Source of the DNA: Pseudomonadota bacterium
GTDB lineage: Bacteria; Bdellovibrionota; FAC87; UBA2466
Reading direction: 5' to 3'
DNA length: 64,000 nucleotides
Assembly (NCBI GenBank): GCA_043767805.1
Contig: JAYUGC010000014.1
Location: 21,050 to 85,049, forward strand
The translations under genes and the position numbers were made by a program. Positions 26,771 through 44,308 of the stretch are shown here, one piece after another. Each line of letters opens with the position of its first letter. Positions within the stretch are counted from its first letter, which is position 1. The notes under the pieces were generated by a model that did no database searches, had not been told where the DNA came from, and worked only from the letters and a program-made list of their open reading frames with translations.

Positions 26771-27988
26771 ATGCGAACCCAGATCAGAGTAGGGCTGTTG
26801 GCCCTGTTTATTTCGGTATCAGCTTTTGCCGTCGACGCGCGCGTCGCGGGCGAGGCCAGTAACCAATTCGGCGTTCAACTTTTTAAATCGACCACGAAGC
26901 GGACGGCGAAGGGAAATAAATTTCTTTCGCCGCTCTCGGCGTACTTAGCGCTCTCGATGGCCTACAACGGCACCGAGGGAACTACCCAAGCCGAGATGGA
27001 AAAAGCGCTCGCGCTCACGGGCATGACCCGCGATGAAGCGAACGATGCCAATCGTCAGCTCATCGCCGCGCTCACCACGGGCCGCGACTTTGACTTGAGC
27101 GTCGCCAACTCCCTCTGGGCTCGTAACCAGTTCGTGATGAAGGACACCTTCTTGAATCCCGTGCGCACGAACTACGGCGCTCGCCTCGAGATGCTGGACT
27201 TCGATTTGCCCACCGCCTCGAAAACGATCAACGACTGGGTTAAGACCGCGACCCATAGCAAGATCGACTCCATCGTTCCGGACAAGCTCGATCCGCAGCT
27301 TCGCCTGGTGCTCATCAACGCGACCTACTTCGAAGCGAAGTGGACGGCCCCGTTTCAAAACTCGGGCACGTACAATGAGCCCTTCAAACGCCCTGACGGC
27401 ACGCGCGTGATTGTCCCCACCATGCACAAAGCCATGGTGGGTAAGCACCTGAAGGCCAGAGAGTATGAGGCCATCGAGCTCCCGTACGGCAAATCGGCGG
27501 AAGCCTCGATGATCGTCGTGGTCCCCACGGACCTCGCGGCTTTCGAGACCGCGCTCTCGGCCAATCAATGGAAATACATCGCTACTCAGCTCACCGCCGC
27601 GCCGGCCGAGCTCGGAACGCTTGCGCTTCCGAAAGTGGAGATCACCTACGAGTCGAGCCTCGTCGATTCGCTCAAGCAACTCGGCATGGTTCGGGCCTTC
27701 GATCTGAAGAACGCTGAGTTTAAGCCGTTGAGCGACGAACAAGTCGGCATCTCCGATGTGCTTCAGAAAACCTACGTAAAGGTATTCGAAGAAGGCACCA
27801 TCGCCGCGGCCGTCACGAGCGTCAGCGTCGGTGCGGCTTCGATTCCGCAGTACAAATTCCAAATGAAGGTGGATCGCCCGTATCTCTTCGGCATCCAGGA
27901 CAAGAAAACCGGCACGCTCCTTTTCATGGGAACCGTGCAGGAGCCCGAAGGCGGCAAGCTTCCGCCTCCGCCGAAGCCTCGCCCTTAG
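26771..27988 (+). CDS. Secreted serpin-family protease inhibitor
   Basis: Signal peptide MRTQIRVGLLALFISVSAFA. Hinge/RCL EEGTIAAAVTSVSVGAAS. Serpin signature FQMKVDRPYLFGI (cf. F.[VA]D[HR]PF[LIVMF][FY][LIVMFY]I). Pro-rich C-terminal tail. Confidence 0.85.
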   Translation: MRTQIRVGLLALFISVSAFAVDARVAGEASNQFGVQLFKSTTKRTAKGNKFLSPLSAYLALSMAYNGTEGTTQAEMEKALALTGMTRDEANDANRQLIAALTTGRDFDLSVANSLWARNQFVMKDTFLNPVRTNYGARLEMLDFDLPTASKTINDWVKTATHSKIDSIVPDKLDPQLRLVLINATYFEAKWTAPFQNSGTYNEPFKRPDGTRVIVPTMHKAMVGKHLKAREYEAIELPYGKSAEASMIVVVPTDLAAFETALSANQWKYIATQLTAAPAELGTLALPKVEITYESSLVDSLKQLGMVRAFDLKNAEFKPLSDEQVGISDVLQKTYVKVFEEGTIAAAVTSVSVGAASIPQYKFQMKVDRPYLFGIQDKKTGTLLFMGTVQEPEGGKLPPPPKPRP

Positions 27989-29511: not shown

Positions 29512-30986
29512 TCTTCCAAGTCCACCGTTCTGAAATCCCAGTTGCCCAAAATATCCCGGGAGAGATTGGAAACTCGTTCGGCCACGAGCGATTGCCGGCG
29601 AATGCCGAGCAGAGGGAGCACCATCGCCTGAGTCTGCACCAGATCTTTTTCCACGTTCTGCAAGGTCAGATTCTTTTCCTCGAGCGTCGGCGACCAGTCC
29701 GCGTCGGCGAGTTTTTCTTCGAGGGCGCGCACGCGGTTGTGTCCCCAACGCTCGCCGTAGAGAGTGAGCCAACGTTTCAGATCCGTTTCGGGATGCAGGG
29801 GATTCCACGTCGCTTCGACGATGAGGCCCGGGGCGACCGAAGAGCTCGGGCTCAAGCCGAGGCGTTTCCCCCATTGAGCTTGGAGATTCGCCGCAAGCTC
29901 CGCGGGGGTCGCGGACTCGGTGCCGTGAACCGTATGCAAAAGAGGAGCGTGGCGGTCGGGGAGTGCGCTCAAATGTTTCGCGGCGCTCTCGGGCGCGAAG
30001 GCGATGGCCCAGCTCGGGACGGGCGCTTCCGCCGGGGCGGCAATGAGGCGGGTGATGCGGTAATGAGGCCAGTGCAAGAGCGGCAAAATCTCCGCGGGAT
30101 CGACTGCCTGGATGAGCGAGCGCCGCCCGATCTCGTCAAAGCCACCGGGAGGTAAGACGAGAAACCAACCGGTTGGCACCGCGAAGGATTTTAGCCGGGG
30201 GTCGCCGGCCAAGGCCGCCGTGGTGGACTCGCTCAAGCCATCGACCGCGTCGGACTCCCTGGCGAAGAAACTTTGAACACGATGCGTTGCGTTCTTCATG
30301 CCCGGCATCAGCTCAATGCCGTCCAGGGGAGTGGCGCTGCCAAAATAAAAAGGATTTCGTTCGAAGCGGTCCGCCGTCTCGCCGGGCCGGAAAGGGCCGA
30401 GCCCCAAGCCCGCGTGAAAGGGCCAGGCCGCCGGCGAGGCGAGCCACATGGGAAAATCGGGGGCCGGCCCGGTGAGCCAGACACGAAAGTGGCGTGCGTC
30501 CTCGATTTTGATGCCCACCCGACTAAAAGGGGCCCGGCCGTGACAGAAAGCGCGCGCCGCTTCGATGCGGCCGAAGGTTTCCATGGCCGCGGGATAAGCG
30601 CGGCACCGGGAAATCACCTGTTTCCAGGACTCGATCACGTCCGCCGCGGTGAAACTCGTGCCGTCGCTCCACTTCAGGCCGTCGCGGAGCTCGATTCGCC
30701 AGGAGCTCGGTGTCACCGCTTTCAAACTTTGCGCAAGTGCCGGCGCCGCGATCCATTGTCCCGAGGTCCAGCTTGCTCGCACCAGTCCTTCTTGAGTCAG
30801 GCAAGCGGGAGCGGAGAGAAAAGGATGCCGCTTCATCTCGCTCGCCGGACAAAGATCCTGGGCGTCGCCCGACCAACGAAGCCACTTTGCTTTTATCGTC
30901 GATAAACTGGGCGCGGGCGCTTTCGAACAGGCAGCGAGAAGGCCCAAAAGAAAAAGAGAAAAAAGAATTCTGCTTGACACCCGCAT
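29508..30986 (-). CDS. ABC-type solute-binding protein, family 5 (oligopeptide/nickel-like), orphan
   Basis: Lipoprotein signal MRVSSRILFSLFLLGLLAACS. W.DG..FTA.DV..SW pattern typical of SBP_bac_5. No permease or ATPase genes adjacent. Confidence 0.55.
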   Translation of the reverse strand: MRVSSRILFSLFLLGLLAACSKAPAPSLSTIKAKWLRWSGDAQDLCPASEMKRHPFLSAPACLTQEGLVRASWTSGQWIAAPALAQSLKAVTPSSWRIELRDGLKWSDGTSFTAADVIESWKQVISRCRAYPAAMETFGRIEAARAFCHGRAPFSRVGIKIEDARHFRVWLTGPAPDFPMWLASPAAWPFHAGLGLGPFRPGETADRFERNPFYFGSATPLDGIELMPGMKNATHRVQSFFARESDAVDGLSESTTAALAGDPRLKSFAVPTGWFLVLPPGGFDEIGRRSLIQAVDPAEILPLLHWPHYRITRLIAAPAEAPVPSWAIAFAPESAAKHLSALPDRHAPLLHTVHGTESATPAELAANLQAQWGKRLGLSPSSSVAPGLIVEATWNPLHPETDLKRWLTLYGERWGHNRVRALEEKLADADWSPTLEEKNLTLQNVEKDLVQTQAMVLPLLGIRRQSLVAERVSNLSRDILGNWDFRTVDLED

Positions 30987-31108
30987 TTGAAACTCATTGT
31001 AACCTCGGATCGCTTGAAGATCGCTGGGGAAATTATTTGACCGCCTTTTTACGAATTGCTAAATCCTCTGTTCGACACGCTTTTCAGACATGGGGAGGAA
31101 TCACTAAA

Positions 31109-31381
31109 ATGAATAAGGCTCAGCTTGTGGAGCATCTCGCCTCGGAAGTCCAGCTTACGAAAGCCGACTGCGAACGCATTCTCGATAACGCTCTCGACAC
31201 GATCCGTAAGACCGTGAAGAAGGGCGATGACGTGACGCTCGTTGGTTTCGGCACGTTCACGCGCACGAAGCGAAAGGCTCGCAAAGGCCGTAACCCGCAA
31301 ACCGGCGAAGCGATCAAGGTTCCCGCTCGCACCGTTCCGAAGTTTCGCCCTGGAAAGGGTTTCAGAGACTTCCTGAACTAA
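31109..31381 (+). CDS. hup: HU-family DNA-binding protein
   Basis: 90 aa. MNKAQLVEHLA...GFGTF..R.R.ARKGRNPQTGE.I.VPA. RBS GGGGAGG. Confidence 0.9.
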   Translation: MNKAQLVEHLASEVQLTKADCERILDNALDTIRKTVKKGDDVTLVGFGTFTRTKRKARKGRNPQTGEAIKVPARTVPKFRPGKGFRDFLN

Positions 31382-31893: not shown

Positions 31894-32988
31894 TTAGAGC
31901 ATCTCGAGCGTTTCGGTGTCGCCGCGTTTTCCGTCCACGCCGACCTGGAACGACTGCACGAACTCGCCAGGCCCGTCTTCTCGCTCGTAGCTCACTTCGA
32001 CGCTGAGTCTTTCGGGGATCGTCGCGAGCTCCAGCGTCATGAGGCCGTCTGAAGAAAGGGTGGCGGCTCCCAAGTCGCGCTCAGTGCCATCGAACTCGCG
32101 CTGGAATAGATGGGCCGAGACCGGCTTCAATAGAATCCATTCGCCGCGCTCGACCTGGTTGTAGATGAAGTCATCTTTGCCGAGCTTACCGATAGCAATC
32201 GCCGGGCCGGGTTTCGGGGCAACGATGCCTTTCAGTACGAAGCCACCCTCGGGCTTGCGTTCACCGGTCCAAATCCGAGTCTGATAGAAGCGATGGGTTT
32301 GCGGCATGGCGAGATACGCGTTCGAAAGAGACGCGTAAATCCCGGGAGAAGACTCCCATGGGGTGAGTCGCCCCTTCGGCTCGGTGAGACGCTTCACGAC
32401 CGGGCGATAAGCCTCGGAATCTTGCGAAAAAAACTCGAGCGCTTGATCCTCGGAGAGGAGAGTCACTTCTCCTCCTTCACGCACGTTGGGGTGGAACACG
32501 ATGAACTTGTCCTCACAATCGCGGAACGCCTTCGGGACGAGGGCATCCAACCGCGCGTTCGCGCCGAGTAATCTTTCCGCGGTGGACTTATTGCCTTCCT
32601 GCACGGAGATATATTTTCCTTCTTCTCCGCGCACTCTTTGGTAAACGATCCGGCCTTTTCCTTCCATGCGAAAGACCACGACCGATTCGCACTTCATGCG
32701 GAAAGACAGATGCTCATCGGGAGCGATGGAAAGGGAAGCGGACCAGCCCCATTGCGCGAAGTCGCGGTCTTCGGCGAGGATCTGCGCGCGGCCGGGGCCG
32801 AGGAAAATGATCTGAGAGTAAGCTTTGCCCTGCTGCGCTTCGATGAGAGAGGGCGCGGTGACGTAATTGCCTCGCCACCCCAAAGGCGGCTTTCGGCTCA
32901 TCACGGAAATGCGGTTGTTGTTGGAACAACCCCACAAGGCCAGAGACAGAACTCCGATAAGGAAAGCTCGCGCCAAAGTAACCTCCAA
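31894..32988 (-). CDS. Lipoprotein, hypothetical
   Basis: MEVTLARAFLIGVLSLALWGCSNNN lipobox. 364 aa. Confidence 0.5.
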   Translation of the reverse strand: MEVTLARAFLIGVLSLALWGCSNNNRISVMSRKPPLGWRGNYVTAPSLIEAQQGKAYSQIIFLGPGRAQILAEDRDFAQWGWSASLSIAPDEHLSFRMKCESVVVFRMEGKGRIVYQRVRGEEGKYISVQEGNKSTAERLLGANARLDALVPKAFRDCEDKFIVFHPNVREGGEVTLLSEDQALEFFSQDSEAYRPVVKRLTEPKGRLTPWESSPGIYASLSNAYLAMPQTHRFYQTRIWTGERKPEGGFVLKGIVAPKPGPAIAIGKLGKDDFIYNQVERGEWILLKPVSAHLFQREFDGTERDLGAATLSSDGLMTLELATIPERLSVEVSYEREDGPGEFVQSFQVGVDGKRGDTETLEML

Positions 32989-33090: not shown

Positions 33091-34953
33091 CTACTTGGCC
33101 CAGAGTCTAAAGGGCCACAAAATCACGTGCCCGTTCTTCGGGTTCACCTTGATGTTCAGCTGCTCCTGCGGCTGCAGATAGAAGAGGAAACCCATGAACA
33201 TCTCATCCTGAGTGCGCTCTCCGTTGATGGGAGCGATCTTATGGTTGGGGTTGTAGGTGTTCATGTCGGAGTTATCGTACAGCGCATGAAAAGTGAGTGG
33301 CGTGTTCTTACGCAGAATCATCGAGCCAGGTGTAAGCAGGTAAGCCATCTGCCAGGAGAAGCTATAAGCCGGCACTTCGGCGACTTTCTTCTCATTCGCG
33401 CCGTAACCTTGAGTGAGCCACATGGCTTTCCCGCGCAAATGCATGTGGGGATAGAAGCCCACGAGATCCATGTCCTCAGGCGCTAACTTCGGCACGGTCA
33501 AGCGGACGTCGCCATCGCCCGCGGGAATATTGAAATTCCCGTGCTCGCTGATGGAGAACATCATGCTCTTGAGCCGCTTGGTGATGGGGCCGCGGGCGTA
33601 ACGGATGCCTACTCTGATGTTGGCAACCTCATCTCGTCCGGAGGCGACGAAATGGATTTGAAAGCCGAGGACCGAGAGCGCGGGAATCACCACGCCGATG
33701 CCTTGGCCGAGCTTCTTCGTTTCCAAAGGCGTCGCGCCGGGTACATAGCCCGCGAGGAAAGTATTCGCCGAAGCGCCTTCGCCGGTACGGATGCGCTCCT
33801 GGACGTTCCAGAAAATTAAGTTCGCGTGGTGAGTGACGGTTTTATTGGTGGGAAGAATCTCGATGGACTCAATCCAAGTGTCTCTCGCGAAGGCCGTGGG
33901 CAAGACGGCGTTGACGTATTTTTCGTCGGCGCTTGCCTTCACGATGAAATCGGTGCGGAAGGTCAAAATCTTGTCCGGAGTGCCGATCTTCCATTCGGAA
34001 GTATTCTTAGGCGGGAGGACCTTTGCTTCCGACGGGCTTCCTTCGCGCTCGCCGCCCCGGATCCAGGACTCGAGAGTGAGCTTGTCGGTTTCCGTCATCT
34101 CTCGGTGATTGAGAAAGCGATACACTTTCTTTTGAGAGAACGCCGGCGGCATGATCTCCGCTTTCACGAAGCTCAGGATCGTCGAGTCGTGGTCTTTCAC
34201 GTCCTCGTAAGAGACGAGCGGGAAGGGGGCTTCTCCGCCGTCCCGATGGCAATCCCAGCAATTGCGGCTGAGGATCGGCTGAATGTCTTTATAGAAGGAA
34301 ATGTCGTGGCTATCGGGAAGCACGGGCTTGTCGTAATCCATGACGCAGCCTTCGGAAGGCGTCTCCGAAATCTCAGGCGTTCTGGCGACCAATAAGCGCA
34401 GCGCGCGGTGGAGCTCTCCTTCGAGGATGTTGGCGGCGGGCTTACTGCCCGCGTGTCCCACGCGGCCGTCGATGCGGCCGCGATAAATCATCCGCCCGCC
34501 TTTTTGAATCACGACGACTTGAGGCGAGCGCTTGACCCCCAGAATCTGTCCCGCGAAGACTTCGTTCTCGGGGTTGGAAATGTCGGGCTCGGGCAAATCT
34601 TTTCCCATGAGAAAGGGAATGTTCATGTCCACGCGGTAGGTGGCCGTATCCAAAATGGATTGGTTCGGGCGGCCGTAGAGGCCGACGAACTCGACGCCTT
34701 GCGCGCGAAACTCCTTATAGAGCGCGGCGAGGGTCGGGGCCTGGCGCTTCGCCAAGGGGCAATCGAGAAGGCCGAAGACTAAGACGTAAGCTTCGCGCGT
34801 GGGGAGATCCGAGTAATGGCGGCGGACTTTGTCCGTATCGAGGAAGCTGAAGTTAGGCACGATCTCGCCGGGGTTCACGGTTTTGGGAGGAGCTCCAAAG
34901 GCGACCGAGGTCACTAAGCTCAAAGGACCGAGAAGTGTGGCGAAACGGACCAT
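33091..34953 (-). CDS. Secreted multidomain protein: thioredoxin-fold domain + PSCyt1-like cytochrome-c (CXXCH) domain + type-II copper monooxygenase (PHM/DBH-like) domain
   Basis: Signal peptide. Redoxin-like region (..VLVFGLLDCPLAKRQAP..GVEFVGLYGRP). CWDCH...MPP motif typical of planctomycete cytochrome C domain. Cu sites HHANLIF (H-H), HMHLRGKAM (H-x-H), downstream Met (DEMFMGF). Confidence 0.6.
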   Translation of the reverse strand: MVRFATLLGPLSLVTSVAFGAPPKTVNPGEIVPNFSFLDTDKVRRHYSDLPTREAYVLVFGLLDCPLAKRQAPTLAALYKEFRAQGVEFVGLYGRPNQSILDTATYRVDMNIPFLMGKDLPEPDISNPENEVFAGQILGVKRSPQVVVIQKGGRMIYRGRIDGRVGHAGSKPAANILEGELHRALRLLVARTPEISETPSEGCVMDYDKPVLPDSHDISFYKDIQPILSRNCWDCHRDGGEAPFPLVSYEDVKDHDSTILSFVKAEIMPPAFSQKKVYRFLNHREMTETDKLTLESWIRGGEREGSPSEAKVLPPKNTSEWKIGTPDKILTFRTDFIVKASADEKYVNAVLPTAFARDTWIESIEILPTNKTVTHHANLIFWNVQERIRTGEGASANTFLAGYVPGATPLETKKLGQGIGVVIPALSVLGFQIHFVASGRDEVANIRVGIRYARGPITKRLKSMMFSISEHGNFNIPAGDGDVRLTVPKLAPEDMDLVGFYPHMHLRGKAMWLTQGYGANEKKVAEVPAYSFSWQMAYLLTPGSMILRKNTPLTFHALYDNSDMNTYNPNHKIAPINGERTQDEMFMGFLFYLQPQEQLNIKVNPKNGHVILWPFRLWAK

Positions 34954-35137
34954 GGGCGCTCCCTTGGAAAATAGGATTGATGCGATGTGTTACCATTCTC
35001 CGCGGTTCGGGGTCAACGGAGAGGGTGGTTAATAAATCCTTTAATTCCGACAATTTTTGTCACCTCGCTTTCTGCTTGGCTTGGAATAACTCGGTGCAGT
35101 AAATTCACCCGTCAATTTCTAAAAGTGAGGTTCTCGC

Positions 35138-36574
35138 GTGAAGGGTTCTCTACTCTTGGTTTCGTTGTGGCTCTCGGCGCTGGCGTTCGCCGCGCCCGGC
35201 TTCTTTGGCGAAAAAGGCGACGGCTATCGCCCGCGCTGCTTAACGAATCCCGCGTCCCGGACGCATCTATTTTTCACCTGGAAAGAATCTGAAAAGACCG
35301 AGCGCAAAATTTGGGCGCGCGTGCGCCGCTTGTCTTGCGGGCAGTGGCGCTCGGCCGGCTCCTGGCTCGCGGTACATTCCTGGACGGAAGTCGCTCCCAA
35401 TCAAGACGTCGTTCTCGGCTACCGTCTCGATGCGGCCACGCGCGAAGCGCTTCGCCAAGTTCGTTATGGGGCGAGTGAGCTGCGCGCGGAGCCCAAAGCC
35501 GCCGACTGGATCCGCGCCCACCCTATCGGGAAGTACACCCACGAGGTGAACGTCGCGCTCACCCAACGTTTCGGCATGGGCTTCTCGGGCGACGTCTATC
35601 AGGCATGGATCGAGCTTCGTCCCGAAAATCATTCGGTGAGAGATCGGTATCGCTACTGGTTCAATGAAGTGCGCAAAGACGCGTCTCGCACGGACTCGCT
35701 CCGCCAAAGAATGAAGGGCCGCAAGGTGCTCATCTCTCTCGGCATGGGCTGGGATCCCAAATCGGCTTCCGTTGGCAGCGAAGTGGATACGTTCGCGCGC
35801 GAGATCGGCGCGATGGGCGCCGACGTCACCATCTTGAAGAACTATCCGTTCGACGACATTCAAAGCAACGTGGGCATTCTCTGGGAGCAGTTGAACGGCG
35901 AGCTCAATAAAGGAAGCGACGTCATTTTAATCGGCATGTGCAAGGGCTCGGTCGAGCTCATGGCCGCGTACTCACTCGCGACTCGTCAGTACCTCGACGC
36001 GCAAAAATCGCAAAACTCGAGAGCCCCGGGCCGTGGCCGGGTCGTTGCTTACTTAAATCTCTCCGGCATGATCGGGGGCACGTTCTTGGGCGATGTCCTA
36101 AACCGCGTGCCTTTTCACGAAACGATCAGCGCTTACCTCCATGACGATTTCAAGGGCACCAAGCACGAGATCGGCCAGGCGCTACTTCAGTTAGAAACCA
36201 TGGGCACGGCAGAGATCAGAAAATTCACGGCCAGCACTTGGGGCAAGGGCGTCCCCGCGGACACCGTCTATTTTAACGTCGTCGGCGTTCCGCCGGAATC
36301 CGGGATCGCGCCTTACGAAACGGGTCTGCTAAAGAGCCTGCGCGCCGGAATCCGGCGCTACCAGCTCTCGAATGCGGCGAGCGATGCTTACATCGAGTAC
36401 CCGTTGAACGAGCTTCCCGCGGGCCTTGGCAAAACTCAGTACACGCTCGTGTTGCCCGGCTCTCATATGTTGTGGGACGGCGTCTATCAGGGTGAAGTTA
36501 TGAGCAAGACGGAAAATCGTCAGGCCCTGACAATGGCGATGTTTCACACACTGCTCGACGTGATCCCGGACTAA
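35138..36574 (+). CDS. Secreted hypothetical protein (possible alpha/beta-hydrolase-like with G-x-C-x-G elbow)
   Basis: GTG start with RBS AAGTGAGG. Signal MKGSLLLVSLWLSALAFAA. Motif VILIGMCKGSVEL. Confidence 0.45.
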   Translation: MKGSLLLVSLWLSALAFAAPGFFGEKGDGYRPRCLTNPASRTHLFFTWKESEKTERKIWARVRRLSCGQWRSAGSWLAVHSWTEVAPNQDVVLGYRLDAATREALRQVRYGASELRAEPKAADWIRAHPIGKYTHEVNVALTQRFGMGFSGDVYQAWIELRPENHSVRDRYRYWFNEVRKDASRTDSLRQRMKGRKVLISLGMGWDPKSASVGSEVDTFAREIGAMGADVTILKNYPFDDIQSNVGILWEQLNGELNKGSDVILIGMCKGSVELMAAYSLATRQYLDAQKSQNSRAPGRGRVVAYLNLSGMIGGTFLGDVLNRVPFHETISAYLHDDFKGTKHEIGQALLQLETMGTAEIRKFTASTWGKGVPADTVYFNVVGVPPESGIAPYETGLLKSLRAGIRRYQLSNAASDAYIEYPLNELPAGLGKTQYTLVLPGSHMLWDGVYQGEVMSKTENRQALTMAMFHTLLDVIPD

Positions 36575-37446
36575 TAGCGGCCAGAGTCGTGTATGAGCTG
36601 CGCGAACTTCGCCTGTCCGTTCGGGCCGAGGTGATAGCAGTCGACGCTGAAGTACTCTGCGAGAAAATCGGTACTCAGCGCGCCCAGCATGATTTCAAAC
36701 GAGTTGAACTTGGAGCGGTGATTCCATTTGTCCACGAGCACGGACATCGCGAGGTCCAAAGCTTCCGAGCGCGGCTTGACGAACTCTTCCAAGGTTCCGT
36801 CTTTGGCCTTGCGCGCAAAGCCCATGCAGTAGGGAAAGAACTTGTTCCAGGAATCCTCGCAGCGGTACTCCGTTTTGCCGTGGTACCAGACGTGGCCCTT
36901 TAAGGTCGCGAACACTTTATCCACGCGGGCCATCGGAATGAGAATGGCGCGCGAGCCGGAATGGGTCGCGTCCCATTTGGAGAGCGCGCGATCGAAGCCC
37001 TGAATGATTCCCGCGACGAGATCCTCCACGGCGGCGGGGTTGTCGCAAAGATCGTTGTGACCGGAGAAGAAGAAGGCGAGGGCGCCTGAGCCCTGCTCCA
37101 CGAGCTGGGATTTCAGGTCTCCCGCCTTCGACGCGGTCACCGCATGATTCTCAACTTCCACGACTGAGCCATCACGGCGCAAGATATCCGCGAGCTGATT
37201 GGGCCAAGCGCGTTTCTTGTCTTCGTGGGCCGCGATGTAGTGACCCTCACCGGTGAGCCGAAACATCGCGCCGTCCGACATGATTTTCCCGATGTCCTTC
37301 AGAGAAGGCGGGTTCATCAGACTCAAGTGGCTCAGGAAACCGGCGGTGAGAGAGTCGCCGTAGGTCTCCAGGCGATAACCCGACGAGGCGAGCGCAACCG
37401 TGCTCAAAAAAAAGGAGAGATAAGTCCAGGCGCGGAACGGTGGCAT
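36571..37446 (-). CDS. SGNH/GDSL-family hydrolase (secreted esterase/lipase-like)
   Basis: Block I YGDSLTAG, block III GHNDL, block V DCYHL (Asp/His of the catalytic triad). Signal peptide. Confidence 0.75.
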   Translation of the reverse strand: MPPFRAWTYLSFFLSTVALASSGYRLETYGDSLTAGFLSHLSLMNPPSLKDIGKIMSDGAMFRLTGEGHYIAAHEDKKRAWPNQLADILRRDGSVVEVENHAVTASKAGDLKSQLVEQGSGALAFFFSGHNDLCDNPAAVEDLVAGIIQGFDRALSKWDATHSGSRAILIPMARVDKVFATLKGHVWYHGKTEYRCEDSWNKFFPYCMGFARKAKDGTLEEFVKPRSEALDLAMSVLVDKWNHRSKFNSFEIMLGALSTDFLAEYFSVDCYHLGPNGQAKFAQLIHDSGRY

Positions 37447-37596
37447 GTGAGACCCCTCAAAAACCTAACTTTGACTTACCGCGACGAAGGAGGCCCGGGA
37501 AGAAAAAAGTCTCCGCGCTGGGGAATCTTTTTCCGCCTAGCGGAACTGTTTTCCCCTATCAGCGTATCGGTTTTCAGGGATTTCAGCGAGTTAAAG

Positions 37597-37612
37597 TGGC
37601 ATCGGGGTTGCA
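37597..37612 (+). promoter_or_regulatory. Candidate sigma-54 (-24/-12) promoter upstream of flgF
   Basis: TGGCAT-CGGGG-TTGCA vs consensus TGGCAC-N5-TTGCW: GG/GC spacing correct, one mismatch. Sits 65 nt upstream of the flgF ATG. Confidence 0.6.
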
Positions 37613-37676
37613 GGAGAGAAGAGACGCACCCCTTCGTCTTCTTATCGGTTTTTTTCCCCCAGTACTTGAGAGGCAA

Positions 37677-38522
37677 ATGGATAAAGGAATCTATACGGCG
37701 CTTTCGGGCGGCATCGCTCGGGGCCACGAAGTCGAGATCCTCGCCAACAACTTGGCGAACGTGAACACGCCTGGCTTCAAGCGCGATCAGGGGACGTTCA
37801 ACGAGTATCTCACCGAGCTTCGGCGTCCGGACTCGGTGGAAGGCTTGAAGCGGGAGATCGTCAACGCCGCTTCGCCGGACGGCCGTCCAGCGGGCGATAA
37901 AAGTTTCGTCGAGATGGACGGGGTCTATACGGATTATCGCCAAGGCGCGCTTCAAAAGACCAACCGCGATCTAGACGTCGCCATCGACGGCAAAGGTTTC
38001 TTCGAAGTGCTCACGCCGGCGGGCATTCGTTACTCACGCCAGGGAAATTTCACCTTGGACGGAGAGGGCCGCCTCGTAAACGGCGCGGGCCATCTCGTGC
38101 TCGCCCGCGATCCTCGTTTGACGCAAACCCTGCCAGCGGGAGCTCGCTTCGAGCCCACCGCGCCTGAATCGCGCGTCATTCAGATGGGCCGTATCGGCCG
38201 TCCTGAAATGACGCCCGACGGCCGCGTGATGCAGAACGGCGCGGAAGTTGCGAGTCTTTCTATCGTCGAGTTTCATGAGTCTCAGTGGCTCGAGAAGATG
38301 GGCAACGGCTTGTACCGCAACACGCACGAGAACAATTTAAAGCACGCGGCGCCGGAAAGCTCCATTCATCAAGGCTTCATCGAAGGCTCCAACGTAAACC
38401 CCGTCCAAGAAATGACCCGCCTCATCGAGGCCACTCGCGCCTATGAGTCCCAGCTGCAAACCATCAAATCCTACGGCGAGATCGATTCGCGTTCCGTGAA
38501 CGACATCGCCCGTCAACGTTAA
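37677..38522 (+). CDS. flgF: Flagellar basal-body rod protein FlgF
   Basis: MDKGIYTALSGGIARGHEVEILANNLANVNTPGFKRD is the flagellar rod N-terminal signature. 281 aa. C-terminal rod motif. Confidence 0.8.
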   Translation: MDKGIYTALSGGIARGHEVEILANNLANVNTPGFKRDQGTFNEYLTELRRPDSVEGLKREIVNAASPDGRPAGDKSFVEMDGVYTDYRQGALQKTNRDLDVAIDGKGFFEVLTPAGIRYSRQGNFTLDGEGRLVNGAGHLVLARDPRLTQTLPAGARFEPTAPESRVIQMGRIGRPEMTPDGRVMQNGAEVASLSIVEFHESQWLEKMGNGLYRNTHENNLKHAAPESSIHQGFIEGSNVNPVQEMTRLIEATRAYESQLQTIKSYGEIDSRSVNDIARQR

Positions 38523-38552
38523 CCCTCTGCTCAACTTTTTGGAGAAGAACCC

Positions 38553-39335
38553 ATGGTAAACGCTCTGCACTCCGCCGCTTCCGGCATGGAAGCTCAAATG
38601 GAGCAAATCGAAAACATCGCCAACAACCTGGCCAATGTGAACACCACGGGCTTCAAGCGCTCCCGCGCCGAGTTTCAGGATCTTTTGTACGAGACCTTGC
38701 AGGAGCCCGGAGCGAATACCTCCGCGCAGACTCAAGCGCCGGTCGGCATTCAGCGCGGCATGGGCGTTACCGTCTCGGGAACCCAGCGTAATTTCGAGCA
38801 GGGCTCTCCCCAGAGCACGAACCGCGATCTCGACGTCATGATCAAAGGCGACGGCTTCTTCGTGGTCCAGCTTCCCAATGGCGAACCGGGCTTCCGCCGG
38901 GACGGCTCCTTCTTTAAGAGCGCGAACGGCCGCATCGAGACCAACGACGGCTATCCGCTGCAGCCGGAAATCGTCGTGCCTCAGGGCGCGCGGAAAATCG
39001 AAATCTCGGAAGAGGGGGAAGTGCGCGCGGTCTTCAACGAGAACGAGAAAACCCAGATCGGGCAAATTCAGCTCGCTACTTTCGTCAATAACGGCGGCTT
39101 GAAAACCATGGGTAAGAACATTTACCTCGCGACCGAAGCGAGCGGCCCGGCCAATCTCGCCACTCCGGGTGACGGGCTCGCGGGCGGTCTTCTGCAGCAG
39201 CATTTGGAAGCGTCCAATGTCGACATCGTGCGCGAGATGACGAATATGATTTCCGCCCAGCGCGCCTTCGAGCTCAACTCGAAGGTGGTCCAGTCCGTCG
39301 ATCAAATTCTCCAACACACGGTGAGCATCCGATGA
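38553..39335 (+). CDS. flgG: Flagellar basal-body rod protein FlgG
   Basis: MVNALHSAASGMEAQMEQIENIANNLANVNTTGFKR. 260 aa, typical of FlgG. Confidence 0.85.
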   Translation: MVNALHSAASGMEAQMEQIENIANNLANVNTTGFKRSRAEFQDLLYETLQEPGANTSAQTQAPVGIQRGMGVTVSGTQRNFEQGSPQSTNRDLDVMIKGDGFFVVQLPNGEPGFRRDGSFFKSANGRIETNDGYPLQPEIVVPQGARKIEISEEGEVRAVFNENEKTQIGQIQLATFVNNGGLKTMGKNIYLATEASGPANLATPGDGLAGGLLQQHLEASNVDIVREMTNMISAQRAFELNSKVVQSVDQILQHTVSIR

Positions 39336-39955
39336 AAAAATGGCTGATTCTGCTTCTCGCCGCTAGCGCTTACGGCGCCAGCACGCCCGAAGCGGCTCTC
39401 GAAAAAGCGGTACGTAAATCATTGGGTCATCCCGCCACCGTCGAGGTTCATAAGGTGAGCCTCAATCTTCCGTGGCCGGGAAACGCCGAAGTGCGTCTCT
39501 TGAATCCCGATCACCCCTATGGCCTGGTGGCCTTCGAAGGGGGAGGGGTGAACGGAACCGCGGAAGTGCGGGCGGTGGCGAGCGTCGTCGTTGCTTCCAT
39601 GCCTATCTACGACGGTGATTCGTTCACGTCGAGCAACACCCGATTAGAAGAGCGCGAGCTTACGCGAGTAGCGGCCGGCGGGTACCACACTGATTTAAAG
39701 ACGCTCGCTCCCATGCGCGCGCGCGGGCGGGTGATGGCTGGCTCGGTCATCGGCATTCGACAGACTCAGGCCCCGGTGCTGGTACAGCCCGGCCAGCTGG
39801 TCGATCTCGTCATCGATCGCAACGGCATGAAGGTGAAAGCCCGGGTCGAAGCGCTGCAGAGAGGCCGCGACCAGGAGTGGATCCGCGTGCGCAATCCCAG
39901 CACCAAAAAAGTGCTCCAGGCGAAAGTGGTCGAAGAGGGCACGGTTACCCTCTAG
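39332..39955 (+). CDS. flgA: Flagellar basal-body P-ring formation chaperone FlgA
   Basis: Signal peptide. C-terminal SAF-like domain. Position between flgG and flgH. Confidence 0.65.
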   Translation: MKKWLILLLAASAYGASTPEAALEKAVRKSLGHPATVEVHKVSLNLPWPGNAEVRLLNPDHPYGLVAFEGGGVNGTAEVRAVASVVVASMPIYDGDSFTSSNTRLEERELTRVAAGGYHTDLKTLAPMRARGRVMAGSVIGIRQTQAPVLVQPGQLVDLVIDRNGMKVKARVEALQRGRDQEWIRVRNPSTKKVLQAKVVEEGTVTL

Positions 39956-39965
39956 AGGAGAAGTT

Positions 39966-40598
39966 ATGCGTTGGATTTCCTTTTTTCTGTTTAGCGTCCT
40001 GGCGGTAGCGGCTCTTGGGGGCTGTGCCACGGCGGACTTGCGTCCCATAGTCGATAACAAAAAGCCCAAGCCGGTCGTCGTTGCGCCCCGCAAGGAATGC
40101 CCGAAAGAACTGGGCTCCATTTGGTGTGAGAACTCCGACTGGAACGACATCTATTCGGAAGCGCCCAATCGTTTCCCGGGCGATACCATTTTGGTCAAGC
40201 TCACGCCTCGCTTTAGACAGCAGATGCTCCGCCGCCTGAAGCACGACTACCCCATCCGCGTGAAAACTAAGGTCGAGGGGGTCGACAAGCTGAAGCCCAA
40301 GGTCGTCGCCAAGATCGAAAATACCAGCAATGCTTTGGCGGACGACGATACCCAGCAGATTTACGTGACCATCACCGAAGTGCTCCCGCGCTATCTCTAC
40401 AAAGTGAAAGCGCAGGAGACCGTTCGTCTCGGATCCCGCGAGCCTATCATCACCCTTGAGGGCGAGATTCGTAACCGCGACATCCAGGGCGACGAAAGCG
40501 TCAGCTCGGACAACATCATGAATAGCGCCTTCGACGTGAAGCCGTACGGCGGCGATCGCCAGATCGCCTCGGAAGAAGCAGCTGAGGAAAACTCATGA
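39966..40598 (+). CDS. flgH: Flagellar L-ring lipoprotein FlgH
   Basis: Lipobox LGGCA. About 210 aa. Position before flgI. Confidence 0.7.
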   Translation: MRWISFFLFSVLAVAALGGCATADLRPIVDNKKPKPVVVAPRKECPKELGSIWCENSDWNDIYSEAPNRFPGDTILVKLTPRFRQQMLRRLKHDYPIRVKTKVEGVDKLKPKVVAKIENTSNALADDDTQQIYVTITEVLPRYLYKVKAQETVRLGSREPIITLEGEIRNRDIQGDESVSSDNIMNSAFDVKPYGGDRQIASEEAAEENS

Positions 40599-41638
40599 AA
40601 ACCCTTTTACTGGCCCTCTCTCTGTGCGCGGGTTCGGCTCACGCGACCCGCATCAAGGATCTCGCTCAGATCCGGGGCGCGCGCACCAATCAGCTTTCGG
40701 GCTACGGCTTGGTCGTCGGTCTCTCCAATACCGGCGATAAGAGCTTCGCGCTCACCGATAGCTCGCTGGCTCTCATCGTCAAAGGGCTTGGCGTCGAGCA
40801 AAAGCCCAACGGCAAATCGGAAAGCCGAAACGCCGCGGCGGTCATGGTCACGACGGTCCTCCCGGCGTTCAGCCGGGTAGGCTCCCAGCTTGACGTCACC
40901 GTATCGTCTATCGGCACCGCCACGTCTCTCGATGGCGGCACGCTCATGATGACGGCGTTAAAAGGCGCGGACGGCAAAATTTACTCCATGGCGCAAGGCA
41001 AGCTCGTGACCACGAAGCGCAATGAGCGCATTCGCGGCGGTCCCACGGGACAGAGCATGGTGACGGCGGGTATTCCCGGCGGCGGTCTCGTCGAAAAAGA
41101 AGTGCAGTTCGACATGACCCAGCAGCACGAGATCGAGTACCAGCTGCTCGCGGCGGATTTTACGACTTCCGCTCGGATCGCGCGCGCCATTAACGAGGAG
41201 CTCGGCGGCAAGTACGCCACCCCTCAAGACGCCGGCGCGGTGCACGTGATTTTTCCTTACTCCCACACGGGCACGCCGGTGGATCTCATCGCGCAGATCG
41301 AGAACATCGAAGTCGAAGCCGACAGACGCGCGAAGATCGTCATCAACCAGCGTACCGGCACCATCGTGCTCGGCTCGCAGGTGAAAATTTTGCCCGTCGC
41401 CATCGCTCACAACAACTTGTCCGTCGAAGTGCGCGAGCCCGCGTCCATTTCGGCGAGCGGCCTGGGTCTTGAAGCCCCCGCGAAGCCCCGTCGCGTGATG
41501 ATGATGGAAAGAGGCGCCACCATGGCGGACCTCGTTTCCGGATTAAACGAAATGGGAGCGTCCGCCGACGATCTTGTCGCACTGGTTCAATCGTTAAAAG
41601 TCTCTGGGGCGCTTGTGGCCGAGGTGGTGATACAATGA
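40595..41638 (+). CDS. flgI: Flagellar P-ring protein FlgI
   Basis: Signal peptide, then RIKDLAQIRGARTNQLSGYGLVVGLSNTGD, the conserved FlgI N-terminus. 347 aa. Confidence 0.85.
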   Translation: MKTLLLALSLCAGSAHATRIKDLAQIRGARTNQLSGYGLVVGLSNTGDKSFALTDSSLALIVKGLGVEQKPNGKSESRNAAAVMVTTVLPAFSRVGSQLDVTVSSIGTATSLDGGTLMMTALKGADGKIYSMAQGKLVTTKRNERIRGGPTGQSMVTAGIPGGGLVEKEVQFDMTQQHEIEYQLLAADFTTSARIARAINEELGGKYATPQDAGAVHVIFPYSHTGTPVDLIAQIENIEVEADRRAKIVINQRTGTIVLGSQVKILPVAIAHNNLSVEVREPASISASGLGLEAPAKPRRVMMMERGATMADLVSGLNEMGASADDLVALVQSLKVSGALVAEVVIQ

Positions 41639-41931
41639 AAATAGCCCCACCCGCATCATCGCCCATGGCCCAAGCTCCCCAAGACGCTCAGAACGCCCAA
41701 GACGAAAAGCTCATGGCCGTTTCCAAGCAGTTCGAGGGGATCTTCGTGAACCAAATGGTTTCGGCCATGCGTAAAACGGTAGTGCGTCAGGGTATCGTGC
41801 CTGAGAGTCACGCTGAGCGCGTCTATCAGGGCATGCTGGACCAAGAGCATGCGCAGCACATCACGGAAAGCGGCGAGCTCGGCCTCGCCAACTTGGTGTA
41901 CCAGCATTTGAAGACTCAATCGTCTCGGTGA
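41635..41931 (+). CDS. flgJ: Flagellar rod-binding protein (FlgJ N-terminal domain only; no muramidase domain)
   Basis: 98 aa. QFEGIFVNQMVSAMRK matches the rod-binding domain of FlgJ. ATGA overlap with flgI. Confidence 0.65.
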   Translation: MKIAPPASSPMAQAPQDAQNAQDEKLMAVSKQFEGIFVNQMVSAMRKTVVRQGIVPESHAERVYQGMLDQEHAQHITESGELGLANLVYQHLKTQSSR

Positions 41932-41962
41932 TACACTAGAGACGTAGACCAAAGGAGACGCC

Positions 41963-42289
41963 ATGAAGGTCACTAATAATCCGTCCGCCAATACGCAGCT
42001 CATCGACTCGACGCGTGCTGCTTCAACCACCAAAGGGACGGAAAAAGCCATCGAAAGCGGCCGCAAGGCGGCGTCGGCGGCGGGCTCTCAAGTGACGATT
42101 TCTGAACGGGCTCAGCTGATGAACCAGGCTTCGGAAGTCGCTCACAATGCTCCCGACGTTCGCCGGGAAAAAGTGGACGCGCTGAAAGCTCAGATTCTGG
42201 GCGGCACCTACAAGATCGACAGCGAGACCATCGCCGAGAAGCTCCTCCAGAGCCACGTCGATTCCGATTTCGGCAAAAATAATCTGTAA
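41963..42289 (+). CDS. flgM: Anti-sigma-28 factor FlgM
   Basis: 108 aa. C-terminal VRREKVDALKAQILGGTYKIDSETIAEKLL is the FlgM sigma-28-binding helix pattern. Confidence 0.75.
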   Translation: MKVTNNPSANTQLIDSTRAASTTKGTEKAIESGRKAASAAGSQVTISERAQLMNQASEVAHNAPDVRREKVDALKAQILGGTYKIDSETIAEKLLQSHVDSDFGKNNL

Positions 42290-42361
42290 GCAATCGACCT
42301 CCTGAAAGATAAGGACGATTGTCCTGAGCCGTAGGCGAAGGATCCTCTCCTTAAATTGACC

Positions 42362-42841
42362 ATGGAACAGGCACACGCGCACGTCTTCGACCTCCACGAG
42401 GAGTGTATTCGGCTCTGTGCGGAGCTACGTCTTTGCCTGGGCCGGGAGCGGGCATTTCTGGTCGAGCTGAAGGTCTCCGAAATTCCTCACGTGACGCTCC
42501 AGAAGGAAAGCCTCGTGCTTTCCCTGACGAGAAAGCGCCGGGAGCTCAAAGAGTACATCCTGCATTGTTACGGCTACGAGAAAGTCTCCTTGTTCGCGGA
42601 GAAGCTCGAAGGCGACGATCGCGCGCGCTGGATCGAACGCGAGACGCGCTGGCGGATGGAATGGACCGAACTTCGCCAGGCCGTTCGCAGCAACCAAGAT
42701 TTTTTGAAGCATTCCCTCAAAATGTTCTCGACCCTCGCCGACAGCCTCAAGCGCTGTCTGGGCGAGCCGTCTCTGTACTCGGCCAAGGGCGCGCGGGTAG
42801 AGACTCAAGTCGAAGGCAAAGTCGTCGCTGGCAGTTACTAA
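42362..42841 (+). CDS. flgN: FlgN-like flagellar export chaperone
   Basis: About 160-aa helical protein between flgM and flgK, as in Bacillus/Campylobacter-type loci. Weak direct similarity. Start at ATG 42362. Confidence 0.5.
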   Translation: MEQAHAHVFDLHEECIRLCAELRLCLGRERAFLVELKVSEIPHVTLQKESLVLSLTRKRRELKEYILHCYGYEKVSLFAEKLEGDDRARWIERETRWRMEWTELRQAVRSNQDFLKHSLKMFSTLADSLKRCLGEPSLYSAKGARVETQVEGKVVAGSY

Positions 42842-42859
42842 TTCCCCGAAGAGGAGCGC

Positions 42860-44308
42860 ATGGCGATTTCAGAAATCCTCGATATCGGTAAATCGGGCAT
42901 GGCGGCCAACCGCCAGGCGATGAATACGGCTTCGAACAACATCGCCAACGCCAATACCCCCGGTTACTCCCGCCAGCGCGCCGTTTTTACTCCTACCGAG
43001 CAGACTTTCATCAACGGCGTGCGCATCGGCCGCGGCGTGCAGGTCAAAGAAGCGCTTCGCATTCACGACGTTTTCGTCGAAAAGCAGCTCATCGAAGAAG
43101 GTAAATCTTTTGGCTCGGCGAAGGCGCGCTCGGAAGTCTTGAAGCGGGTGGAAGGCTCGCTCGCAACCGACTCCAACCGCGTGACCGATCTGATGAACAA
43201 TTTCTTCAACGACGTGCGCGAGCTTTCGGTGAACCCGGAACAGGTCGCGCTCCGCTCGTCGGTGCTGATGTCGGCAAAGAACGCGGCCGGCGGCTTTCGC
43301 GAGCTGGGCGATTCGCTGCGAGGCATTCGCGAGAACCTAGACACGCAAATCGAGGTCGACGTCGTTCAGGTCAACTCGCTCGCCAAAGAGCTTGCGGGAC
43401 TAAACGTGAACATCGCTTCCGCCGCGGCTCGCGGCGTGGAAGCCCCTCACGAGCTTGAAGATCGCCGCCAGCAGGTCATGCAGGAGCTATCCGAAAAGAT
43501 GGGCGTCGACAGCACCACCGATCAGTTCGGCCGCAAGGTCGTGCAAATCGGCGGCATCGGCGTCCTGGTCAACGGCGATCAGGTGAACGAGCTCATTACC
43601 ATGCGGACTCCGCCGTCGGAAGGTAAGGCGGCCGGCTCCGTCGACATTTTCATCAAGGACGGCAATGGGCTGTCGAAAGTCACTTCCCGCATCGACCAGG
43701 GAAGCATCGGTGGCAGCATCCACGTCCGCGACAACCTCATTACGAAATCCTTGGGCGATCTCGATCGCTCGGCGTTTCAGTTCGCCTCTCGCGTGAACGA
43801 AATCCACCGCGAGGGGGTGGGCGCCGACGGACAGACGGGCAGAAATCTCCTCACCCAGCCCGACGGCGAGCACGACGCGAGCCAGTTCTTGAAATTATCA
43901 GCCGACCTCGAAGGCAATCCGGATGGCTTGGCGCTGGGCTACACGCCCAACGCGCCTTCCGATAACCGAGTGGCTTTGGAGCTGACTAAGCTCCAGGAAG
44001 AGAAAATCGTCCCGTCCCGGAGGCAAGGCGAGGGCACGCTCTCCCAAGGCGGCGGCCAGACTTTGAACGAGTCTCTTACGACTCTCGTAGGTGAAATTGG
44101 CCTGCAGACCCGCAACGAAGAGCAGGCATTTCAGCGCCAAGACAGCATCATGAAGCAGCTGAACAACTACCGCGAGTCCGTATCGGGCGTGAACCTCGAG
44201 GAAGAGGCGATGAACCTCATGCAGTATCAGACGGTTTACAATGCTTCCGCCAAGGCCATGAAGGTCGGCGCGGAGCTCTTTGATACCTTACTTCATATCG
44301 TCGATTGA
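42860..44308 (+). CDS. flgK: Flagellar hook-associated protein 1 FlgK
   Basis: ILDIGKSGMAANRQAMNTASNNIANANTPGYSRQ N-terminal signature. 482 aa. Confidence 0.85.
   Translation: MAISEILDIGKSGMAANRQAMNTASNNIANANTPGYSRQRAVFTPTEQTFINGVRIGRGVQVKEALRIHDVFVEKQLIEEGKSFGSAKARSEVLKRVEGSLATDSNRVTDLMNNFFNDVRELSVNPEQVALRSSVLMSAKNAAGGFRELGDSLRGIRENLDTQIEVDVVQVNSLAKELAGLNVNIASAAARGVEAPHELEDRRQQVMQELSEKMGVDSTTDQFGRKVVQIGGIGVLVNGDQVNELITMRTPPSEGKAAGSVDIFIKDGNGLSKVTSRIDQGSIGGSIHVRDNLITKSLGDLDRSAFQFASRVNEIHREGVGADGQTGRNLLTQPDGEHDASQFLKLSADLEGNPDGLALGYTPNAPSDNRVALELTKLQEEKIVPSRRQGEGTLSQGGGQTLNESLTTLVGEIGLQTRNEEQAFQRQDSIMKQLNNYRESVSGVNLEEEAMNLMQYQTVYNASAKAMKVGAELFDTLLHIVD

Follow-up and report, generated by a model that had tools for sequence, protein, structure and literature searches.

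The Target Gene and Its Predicted Product

The gene described here lies on the minus strand of a 64,000-nt stretch of contig JAYUGC010000014.1 (the window), where it runs from 33091 to 34953 and encodes a 620-aa protein (the target), whose residue numbers are used throughout. The product is predicted to be secreted and to combine a thioredoxin-fold domain of the PRX_like1 type, a c-type cytochrome and, directly after the cytochrome, a copper part resembling the animal enzymes peptidylglycine alpha-hydroxylating monooxygenase (PHM) and dopamine beta-hydroxylase (DBH), by which amidated hormones and noradrenaline, respectively, are made. Based on its sequence and predicted structure, we consider that the target is probably a soluble periplasmic two-copper monooxygenase of the PHM/DBH type, which would be independent of ascorbate and fed by its own haem c. 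The single 620-aa open reading frame that an initial annotation of this DNA had read here was borne out at its exact position, on the minus strand and with an ATG start, and the database protein P0001 is 100% identical to the target. The gene and its signals are as follows:

33091..34953, minus strand: whole gene for the 620-aa predicted secreted three-domain protein (open reading frame list, ATG start)
34959..34965, minus strand: Shine-Dalgarno-like AAGGGAG, 5 nt 5′ of the ATG (direct sequence reading)
34894..34953, minus strand: Sec-type signal peptide, residues 1-20 (MVRFATLLGPLSLVTSVAFG, with A following the boundary; direct sequence reading)

Covalent attachment of haem c requires export. 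Residues 1-18 are modelled by AlphaFold2 with a predicted local distance difference test (pLDDT) score below 50. The target contains exactly four cysteines (65, 203, 232 and 235), all of which are accounted for by a 65/203 pair and the 232/235 haem pair. No sigma-70-like promoter or convincing terminator was found near the gene, and no paralogue of it within the window.

The Carboxy-Terminal Half Carries PHM-Type Copper Ligands

The initial annotation had assigned the C-terminal half of the protein to a monooxygenase-like domain with two copper sites (HH...H and HxH...M). A profile of 19 C-terminal halves of the family matched rat PHM (E 1.4e-12) and human DBH (E 2.2e-11) across both subdomains, and all six PHM copper ligands, plus Q272, were in register with the family profile. 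The corresponding features of the target are:

33589..33996, minus strand: PHM-like N-terminal beta-sandwich (CuH subdomain), residues ~320-455 (strands 328-452, PHM profile alignment)
33826..33831, minus strand: H375-H376, equivalent to PHM CuH ligands H107/H108 (family 'vvHHanl', PHM 'TVHHMLL')
33652..33654, minus strand: H434, equivalent to PHM CuH ligand H172 (family 'lqiHy', PHM 'LQVHY')
33154..33576, minus strand: PHM-like C-terminal beta-sandwich (CuM subdomain), residues ~460-600 (Cu2_monoox_C, PHM profile alignment)
33439..33447, minus strand: H503-M-H505, equivalent to PHM CuM ligands H242/H244 (family 'pHmHlrGk', PHM 'VHTHHLGK')
33433..33435, minus strand: R507, family-specific Arg two residues past the CuM His (Leu in PHM)
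33349..33351, minus strand: Q535, equivalent to PHM Q272 (family 'WQ', PHM 'PQ')
33199..33201, minus strand: M585, equivalent to PHM CuM ligand M314 (family 'dEMm', PHM 'DEMC')

The AlphaFold2 model of the target, built on 23 sequences, reached a pLDDT of 88 and a predicted template modelling score (pTM) of 0.86, and its strands fall into two consecutive beta-sandwiches (328-452 and 462-593). When solved structures were searched with Foldseek, the best match was human DBH (4zel; E 4.6e-11 over 323 columns), followed by about 30 PHM entries (E ~1e-10, ~290 columns; the top hits ranged from E 5e-11 to 2e-9), and no bacterial PHM-like entry appeared among the 50 best matches. Both predicted copper sites were therefore recovered in PHM register, as H375/H376/H434 and H503/H505/M585, and the profile and structure searches, which could have assigned this half to a non-copper family, went to a copper family (PHM by profile; DBH and PHM by Foldseek).

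Conservation was counted over the best 150 family representatives, which are less than 50% identical to each other. Among these, H375, H376 and H434 were kept in 149 each, H503 in 150, H505 in 149 and M585 in 149. Chance motifs were rejected as an explanation, given metal ligands kept in 149-150 of 150 sequences this divergent. The Q272-equivalent Q535 was kept in 149 (PDB entries 8dsl and 8dsn are Q272 mutants of PHM). The family also has invariant residues of its own near CuM, namely R507 in HxHxRG (146/150), W534-Q535, Y538 and D560-N561-S562 (147, 149 and 146 of 150, respectively); its motifs HxHxRG, W-Q-x-x-Y and D-N-S-x-x-N are not those of PHM. We suggest R507 as a candidate substrate-binding residue.

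The target thus shares with PHM, the catalytic core of PAM (PDB 1PHM, 1SDW, 3MLL), the two beta-sandwiches, the same six ligands and Q272, at a sequence identity of ~14-16%. PHM differs in being eukaryotic and ascorbate-fed and in lacking a fused cytochrome or thioredoxin domain, and its core cysteines are missing from the copper domain of the target, in which all cysteines lie in the thioredoxin and cytochrome domains. DBH (4ZEL), tyramine beta-monooxygenase and MOXD1/2 have the same copper ligands, and in DBH, as in the target, an extra domain precedes the catalytic core. In DBH, however, that domain is a DOMON domain, the reductant is ascorbate and a dimerisation domain is present, whereas the target has a haem c cytochrome in the place of the DOMON domain. 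Pfam searches gave no DOMON match in the target or the 23 relatives, and the DBH dimerisation domain is absent from the target.

A c-Type Cytochrome Related to PSCyt1 Domains

The central part of the protein contains the following features:

34039..34311, minus strand: class-I c-type cytochrome domain, PSCyt1-related, residues ~215-305 (helices in model, hhalign)
34246..34260, minus strand: CWDCH, residues 232-236, haem c cysteines and proximal His (invariant in 23/23 and 150/150)
34144..34152, minus strand: M268-P-P270, presumed distal Met haem ligand (aligns with the MPP of PSCyt1 domains)

In the AlphaFold2 model, helix 220-231 leads into CWDCH, helix 249-265 precedes MPP and a further helix spans 288-299. 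The sequence and the predicted structure together show what is expected of a class I c-type cytochrome, i.e., CxxCH after a helix, a distal Met and a C-terminal helix. C232, C235, H236 and M268 are each present in all 150 representatives, and the two prolines of MPP in 150 and 149. Pfam matches to Cytochrome_CBB3 and Haem_bd were obtained for 10 and 8 of the 23 relatives, respectively.

The haem site had been proposed to be of the planctomycete PSCyt1 type. Its motifs are indeed in place at 232-236 and 268-270, and alignment of the cytochrome domain by hhalign with three PSCyt1 domains, themselves verified on PF07635 at 38-60 bits, gave a probability of 97.2% and an E of 3e-11 with CxxCH and MPP aligned. 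The Pfam PSCyt1 model (PF07635), however, was silent on the whole target (E <=1) and on the isolated domain (E <=10), and PSCyt1 was not among the 25 families most matched by the 23 relatives (E <=0.01). Given the profile-profile match with both motifs aligned, the PSCyt1 label appears right as a statement of homology and not as membership by the Pfam model. PSCyt1 domains of planctomycete DUF1549/DUF1553-type proteins have the same motif order, (F/Y)xxDIxPIL..C..CH ... MPP ... L(S/T)xxE...L..WI..G, and differ from the target in the stretch between CH and MPP and in their downstream partner domains.

A PRX_like1 Thioredoxin Fold With a Conserved Cysteine Pair

The N-terminal domain carries these features:

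34336..34869, minus strand: thioredoxin-fold domain of PRX_like1 type, residues 29-206 (Pfam AhpC-TSA, profile matches, Foldseek)
34750..34761, minus strand: C65-P-L-A68, lone Cys at the first CxxC position (alignment to ResA and 3u5r/2ywi/2cvb)
34345..34347, minus strand: Cys203 (GC motif) at the thioredoxin/cytochrome junction, presumed partner of Cys65 (alignment to 3u5r/2ywi/2cvb)

A redoxin-like, thiol-redox domain had been predicted here. The thioredoxin fold was confirmed, Pfam AhpC-TSA matching residues 29-119 above its gathering score (E 3.2e-7) and Redoxin falling just under threshold, but the domain has no CxxC, reading C65-P-L-A with the second conserved Cys at position 203. The best single-sequence match in the PDB was ResA, of whose C-x-x-C, aligned to C65-P-L-A68, only the first Cys is retained; position 68 is A, S or V across the family and Cys in just 6 of 150. 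A profile of the domain matched 3u5r (E 5e-31), 2ywi (4e-30) and 2cvb/2ywo (3e-29) over its whole length (profile positions 4-176), including the C-terminal GC that corresponds to G202-C203, and Foldseek comparison of the AlphaFold2 model with 3u5r, 2ywi and 2cvb gave template modelling scores, normalised to the solved structures, of 0.73-0.77. By profile and by the published Prx_like1 motif (LLVMFICQHCPFVK; PMC3514251), with which the target agrees, the domain is best placed in the group named PRX_like1 (cd02969) in CDD.

The PRX_like1 proteins of solved structure (2CVB and 2YWO of Thermus, 2YWI of Geobacillus and 3U5R of Sinorhizobium) match the N-terminal domain over its full length and share with it the C-P-x-x that follows the first strand, the YRG(R)xDD motif and a G-C at the C-terminal end. 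They differ in being stand-alone proteins of ~190 aa and of unknown function, whereas in the target a cytochrome and a copper enzyme are joined to the domain; in addition, 2CVB and 2YWI carry an extra Cys three residues upstream (CNHC) that is absent from the target. The C-terminal Cys of 2ywi has been treated as a resolving cysteine (PMC3091736).

Two more familiar identities were rejected. A ResA-type CxxC oxidoreductase is not compatible with the lack of the CxxC active site found in ResA, TlpA and CcmG, and the NCBIfam ResA model gave the target 21.6 bits against a cut-off of 170. A peroxiredoxin identity was rejected because the PxxxTxxC motif is absent: direct reading gives L58-V-F-G-L62-L-D-C65, with no Pro at -7 and no Thr or Ser at -3. 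Cys65 is kept in 142 and Cys203 in 143 of the 150 representatives, both being present in 140 and both absent in 5; the full-length member P0011 is without either and retains the haem and copper ligands. Cys203 stands at the domain junction, with the haem-binding motif beginning 29 residues further on, and a disulfide at this point could pin or gate the way in which the domains are arranged.

The Cytochrome-Copper Unit Is the Likely Conserved Core

In the first 23 relatives, CxxCH, MPP, HH, H and HxH were invariant and M585 was present in at least 90%. Six of these relatives (P0018-P0023) have no thioredoxin domain and retain CxxCH, MPP, HH, H and HxH; in them the cytochrome directly follows the signal peptide, and modules such as TPR repeats or a type IX secretion system sorting domain are added. 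The spacing from CxxCH to HH, 143 residues in the target, ranges from 139 to 147 over the target and these six relatives. Because both the thioredoxin-less relatives and the full-length members without the cysteines keep the haem and copper ligands, the comparison of sequences suggests that the cytochrome-copper unit is the conserved machine and that the two cysteines form a coupled but dispensable pair. The thiol chemistry is accessory in this sense, as the cytochrome-copper core occurs without the thioredoxin domain. Given that the pair is dispensable, Cys65/Cys203 would have an accessory role as a thiol/disulfide couple, in the handling of peroxide, in redox gating or in repair, and would not be the principal source of electrons.

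A Glycine-Extended Peptide Substrate Is Disfavoured

The residues with which PHM anchors its peptide substrate were compared next to their family counterparts. The position of PHM R240 is Y501 in the target and F, M, L, A, T or S in the family; that of N316 is M587, with I, F, N, V, L or Y in the family; and that of Y318 is F589, with Y, F or W in the family, so that only aromatic character is retained. As the family has not retained R240 and N316, which anchor the carboxylate and backbone of the substrate in PHM, sequence comparison indicates that the substrate is not a glycine-extended peptide and that the target is not peptide-amidating. Assignment as a peptide-amidating PHM orthologue was rejected on this ground.

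Domain fusions offered a further hint. Among 19 long family members scanned with Pfam, 7 carry carbohydrate-related or ester-handling modules, namely CBM48 with an M56 anchor, CBM_4_9 with a fatty-acid-hydroxylase domain, a 3-keto-disaccharide hydrolase, two GDSL/SGNH domains, an MBOAT domain and an alpha/beta esterase. The rest have TPR repeats (5), EF-hands, a PQQ beta-propeller or a zinc ribbon (1 each), or no added Pfam domain (4). Read as a weak Rosetta-stone hint, these fusions raise a glycan or envelope polymer as a substrate, a suggestion that we make tentatively and hold to be fairly unlikely.

Two observations stand beside this question. The long members P0048 and P0056 have a fused GDSL/SGNH domain, and a GDSL-like lipase/acylhydrolase is encoded in the window two genes from the target (36571-37446, minus strand; E 7.8e-5, just under the Pfam threshold).

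A Proposed Haem-to-Copper Relay and Its Alternatives

PHM/DBH-type enzymes hold their two coppers ~11 Å apart and hydroxylate C-H bonds with O2 and two external electrons. To our knowledge, all characterised enzymes with a His3/His2Met pair of sites (PHM, DBH and tyramine beta-monooxygenase) are O2-activating monooxygenases that take two external electrons per turnover. Ascorbate is the electron source in animals and is not expected as a periplasmic reductant. Building on the domain identities, the conservation and register of the ligands, the secretion signal and the core and accessory pattern found above, we propose a metal occupancy, a direction and path of electron flow and a chemistry for the target as follows. 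The catalytic part would be a non-coupled two-copper site made up of CuH (His3) and CuM (His2Met). The His/Met haem c would take single electrons from a periplasmic donor, e.g., a soluble cytochrome, and would pass them to CuH, filling the role that ascorbate has in the animal enzymes. By analogy with PHM, CuH would then reduce CuM, and by analogy with PHM and DBH, CuM would activate O2 and the substrate would be hydroxylated at a C-H bond; the fusions hint weakly that this substrate may be a glycan or an envelope component.

Such a tethered electron relay is the simplest reading of the sequence and the model, because an invariant His/Met haem c lies upstream of CuH at a near-constant spacing and the whole chain is modelled with confidence. 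The built-in cytochrome would thus probably replace vitamin C as the electron source. The initial annotation had named both the cytochrome and the thiol domain as possible electron suppliers to the coppers. The cytochrome part is plausible in view of the spacing of 139-147 residues, the invariant haem ligands and the pTM of 0.86, while the thiol part is weakened by the lack of CxxC, by P0018-P0023 and by the members without the cysteines. There are precedents for a haem domain that supplies a copper site, i.e., the cytochrome c-fused copper nitrite reductase of Ralstonia pickettii and the cytochrome of cellobiose dehydrogenase that feeds LPMOs. These share with the proposed relay the design in which haem gives single electrons and no small-molecule reductant is needed, and they differ in having unrelated copper folds and chemistry (a cupredoxin nitrite reductase and a histidine-brace LPMO), and no homology to the target is implied.

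Several results weigh against this proposal. Pfam Cu2_monoox_C (PF03712) matched residues 490-597 of the target at E 6.9e-4, with 19.6 bits against a cut-off of 23, and PF01082 (Cu2_monooxygen, the N-terminal copper domain) gave no match in the target. Gene calling and clustering over 83 related loci and the window revealed no conserved operon partner that points to the substrate or the electron donor. The carbohydrate-related fusions are a minority among the long members, and TPR repeats and EF-hands are uninformative on the substrate. In addition, three family members (L022, L044 and L069) lie on contigs of metagenome-assembled genomes (MAGs) labelled Candidatus Kuenenia or Brocadiaceae, which are anaerobic anammox bacteria; if the binning and the labels are correct, these loci fit an O2-dependent enzyme poorly. 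As to the Pfam scores, PF03712 was matched by 9 of the 23 relatives (E <=0.01; best E 2.8e-8). Given that the scores of the target are below threshold but the family profile reaches PHM at the E value reported above, the target is best read from its sequence as a distant PHM/DBH branch and not as a member by the curated Pfam models.

Other arrangements of the same parts were weighed against the relay. The thiols might drive the monooxygenase, a CcdA/DsbD-like system reducing Cys65-Cys203 and two electrons passing via the haem to the coppers. The strong conservation of the two cysteines and their joint loss would suit this arrangement, as would the location of Cys203 so close before the haem motif, and one dithiol would provide the two electrons of a turnover. 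We nevertheless consider it unlikely, given the lack of CxxC, the relatives P0018-P0023 that do without the thioredoxin domain altogether and the full-length members P0011, P0060, P0153, P0162 and P0164 that have lost the cysteines and kept the haem and copper ligands; moreover, no CcdA/DsbD-like gene was found among the scanned neighbours, and thiol-to-haem c transfer without a flavin is unusual. Electrons could also run the other way, with the copper domain acting as an oxidase or dehydrogenase on the substrate and haem c exporting electrons to the respiratory chain. The direction of transfer is not fixed by sequence, and tethered cytochromes in periplasmic dehydrogenases are usually electron exits. 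The characterised His3/His2Met enzymes, however, all activate O2 and consume two external electrons, and the family keeps the CuM Met and the Gln aligned with Q272, so that we give reverse flow little credence.

A further proposal is limited to the accessory domain and is compatible with the haem-to-copper relay. It holds that the thioredoxin-like domain is a copper-handling or repair module, which would load Cu(I) via Cys65/Cys203 in the manner of Sco or TlpA or would reduce the CuM Met. Sco and TlpA, which are related through the thioredoxin fold, supply copper or act as reductants of residues at copper sites, proteins of the ResA/TlpA type are the closest characterised sequence relatives of the domain, and MsrA is encoded convergently downstream in five related loci. 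We regard this role as very doubtful, as no conserved His or Met stands beside the two cysteines and the MsrA neighbour occurs in few related genomes and on the opposite strand. It is highly improbable, finally, that the target is mainly an antioxidant thiol peroxidase or oxidoreductase in which the cytochrome and PHM-like parts serve for binding or structure. L58 and L62 stand where PxxxTxxC needs Pro and Thr, the haem and copper ligands and not the cysteines are the most conserved residues, and the thioredoxin domain is the dispensable part; speaking for a peroxidase are the name 'peroxiredoxin' that JGI gives to relatives, the fact that AhpC-TSA and Redoxin are the sole Pfam matches above or near threshold, and the treatment of the 2ywi-type C-terminal Cys as resolving (PMC3091736).

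Size, Distribution and Significance of the Family

A HMMER search with the family profile, counted in 50%-identity cluster representatives, returned 67,707 proteins at E <=1e-3, 25,615 at <=1e-10 and 7,065 at <=1e-30; the looser counts surely include proteins with a thioredoxin fold only. Nearly all of the best 150 match across the three domains, a few being truncated or matching in two stretches. One protein that matches in two stretches, P0024 (1251 aa), has the look of the entire module duplicated in tandem. When one genome per species was scanned, at least 594 stretches matched. The labels of most of the best 80 are Planctomycetota or planctomycete lineages (Pirellulales, Gemmatales, Planctomycetales, Isosphaeraceae), with Gemmata algarum JC673 and Lacipirellula limnantheis I41 as cultured strains, and in 78 of these 80 the match begins in the N-terminal domain. 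The target is 31-36% identical to the proteins of these best 80 stretches, and three closer metagenomic relatives are 76, 59 and 61% identical, so that by sequence it appears to belong to a small divergent subclade.

The target is therefore not a rarity; the sequence databases already contain its very large family under uninformative names, i.e., 'peroxiredoxin' (JGI), 'hypothetical protein' and, for one thioredoxin-less relative, 'monooxygenase'. In the literature surveyed, mostly journals outside subscription, neither a characterised bacterial homologue of PHM/DBH nor an account of this architecture came to light, which agrees with the initial annotation, in which no characterised bacterial example was known. 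The sequence family is thus known to databases, and we found no study of it. PHM has been described as widespread in eukaryotes, unlike the bacterial PNGase F (PMC8812541, 2022).

A flagellar rod/hook cluster occupies the plus strand of the window at 37440-44308 and includes two rod genes of the FlgF/FlgG type (37440-38522 and 38553-39335) as well as FlgK (42860-44308). Those relatives of the FlgG product (38553-39335) that have names are 'Deltaproteobacteria' and 'Pseudomonadota' MAGs at 68-71% identity. Since the relatives of this FlgG have those labels while the target family is mostly planctomycete, the host is probably outside the planctomycetes, which raises the possibility of horizontal transfer of the target gene.

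PHM and DBH are textbook animal enzymes, and it is still debated how CuH receives its electrons and how these then bridge the ~11 Å of solvent that separates it from CuM. The open and closed conformers of such enzymes are covered in a recent review (PMC12164859). On sequence and predicted structure, on which the significance of the family rests, we put forward, as a reading we lean slightly away from accepting in full, that it represents a self-sufficient prokaryotic branch of PHM/DBH in which CuH and CuM are wired to haem, the Prx-like cysteines manage peroxide or gating, and the substrate is not a peptide and is possibly an envelope or environmental glycan. If this is true, PHM/DBH chemistry would prove widespread in bacteria, and the target would offer a soluble, bacterially expressible system whose haem would allow the delivery of electrons to be triggered and to be monitored by optical means. 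It would also provide a second copper polysaccharide monooxygenase fold unrelated to LPMOs, and a new substrate class to seek in the Planctomycetota, whose secreted oxidative enzymes are largely unknown. Thousands of 'peroxiredoxin' and 'hypothetical' annotations would then be corrected.

Genomic Neighbourhood

The neighbours of family members in the related loci belong to common planctomycete families, such as kinases, DUF1501, PSCyt1/DUF1553 and sulfatases. In the window, the gene for a 478-aa secreted protein, which matches nothing in Pfam or NCBIfam, runs divergently from the target (35138-36574, plus strand). A 57% identical orthologue occupies the same divergent position (L087, 907-2340, minus strand) beside P0004, which is 61% identical to the target, and among the related loci this neighbour is common only to those of the target and P0004. 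As the orthologue keeps its divergent position, the target and the 478-aa protein may be linked within the small subclade. On the other side, downstream of the target and in the same orientation, a gap of 102 bp precedes a 364-aa lipoprotein-like open reading frame (31894-32988, minus strand) with LALWGC close to its N-terminus. This frame has no family match, and the related loci compared encode no homologue of it save L001, whose sequence is that of the window itself.

Two kinds of redox gene were seen beside family members elsewhere. MsrA is encoded convergently downstream on the minus strand in five related loci (L069, 5188-5988; L081, 8325-9608; L083, 6849-7739; L084, 3803-4567; L085, 8346-8699), an adjacency that may reflect synteny alone or a connection with the repair of the CuM methionine. 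Upstream of P0005, in the same orientation and separated from it by 20 bp, is a DHOR-like (di-haem oxidoreductase) gene (L002, 6445-7980; L003, 11-1714); this gene is adjacent to P0005 only, and tblastn with its product gave no match in the other related loci.

Further genes on the plus strand of the window include a bacterial serpin at 26771-27988 (Pfam Serpin, E 5.6e-97) and an HU-type DNA-binding protein at 30710-31381. In the latter, the HU domain spans residues 134-223 and is preceded by ~130 residues from the GTG start, and the true start may be further downstream. At 58527-62462, a 1311-aa protein with four Calx-beta domains is encoded.

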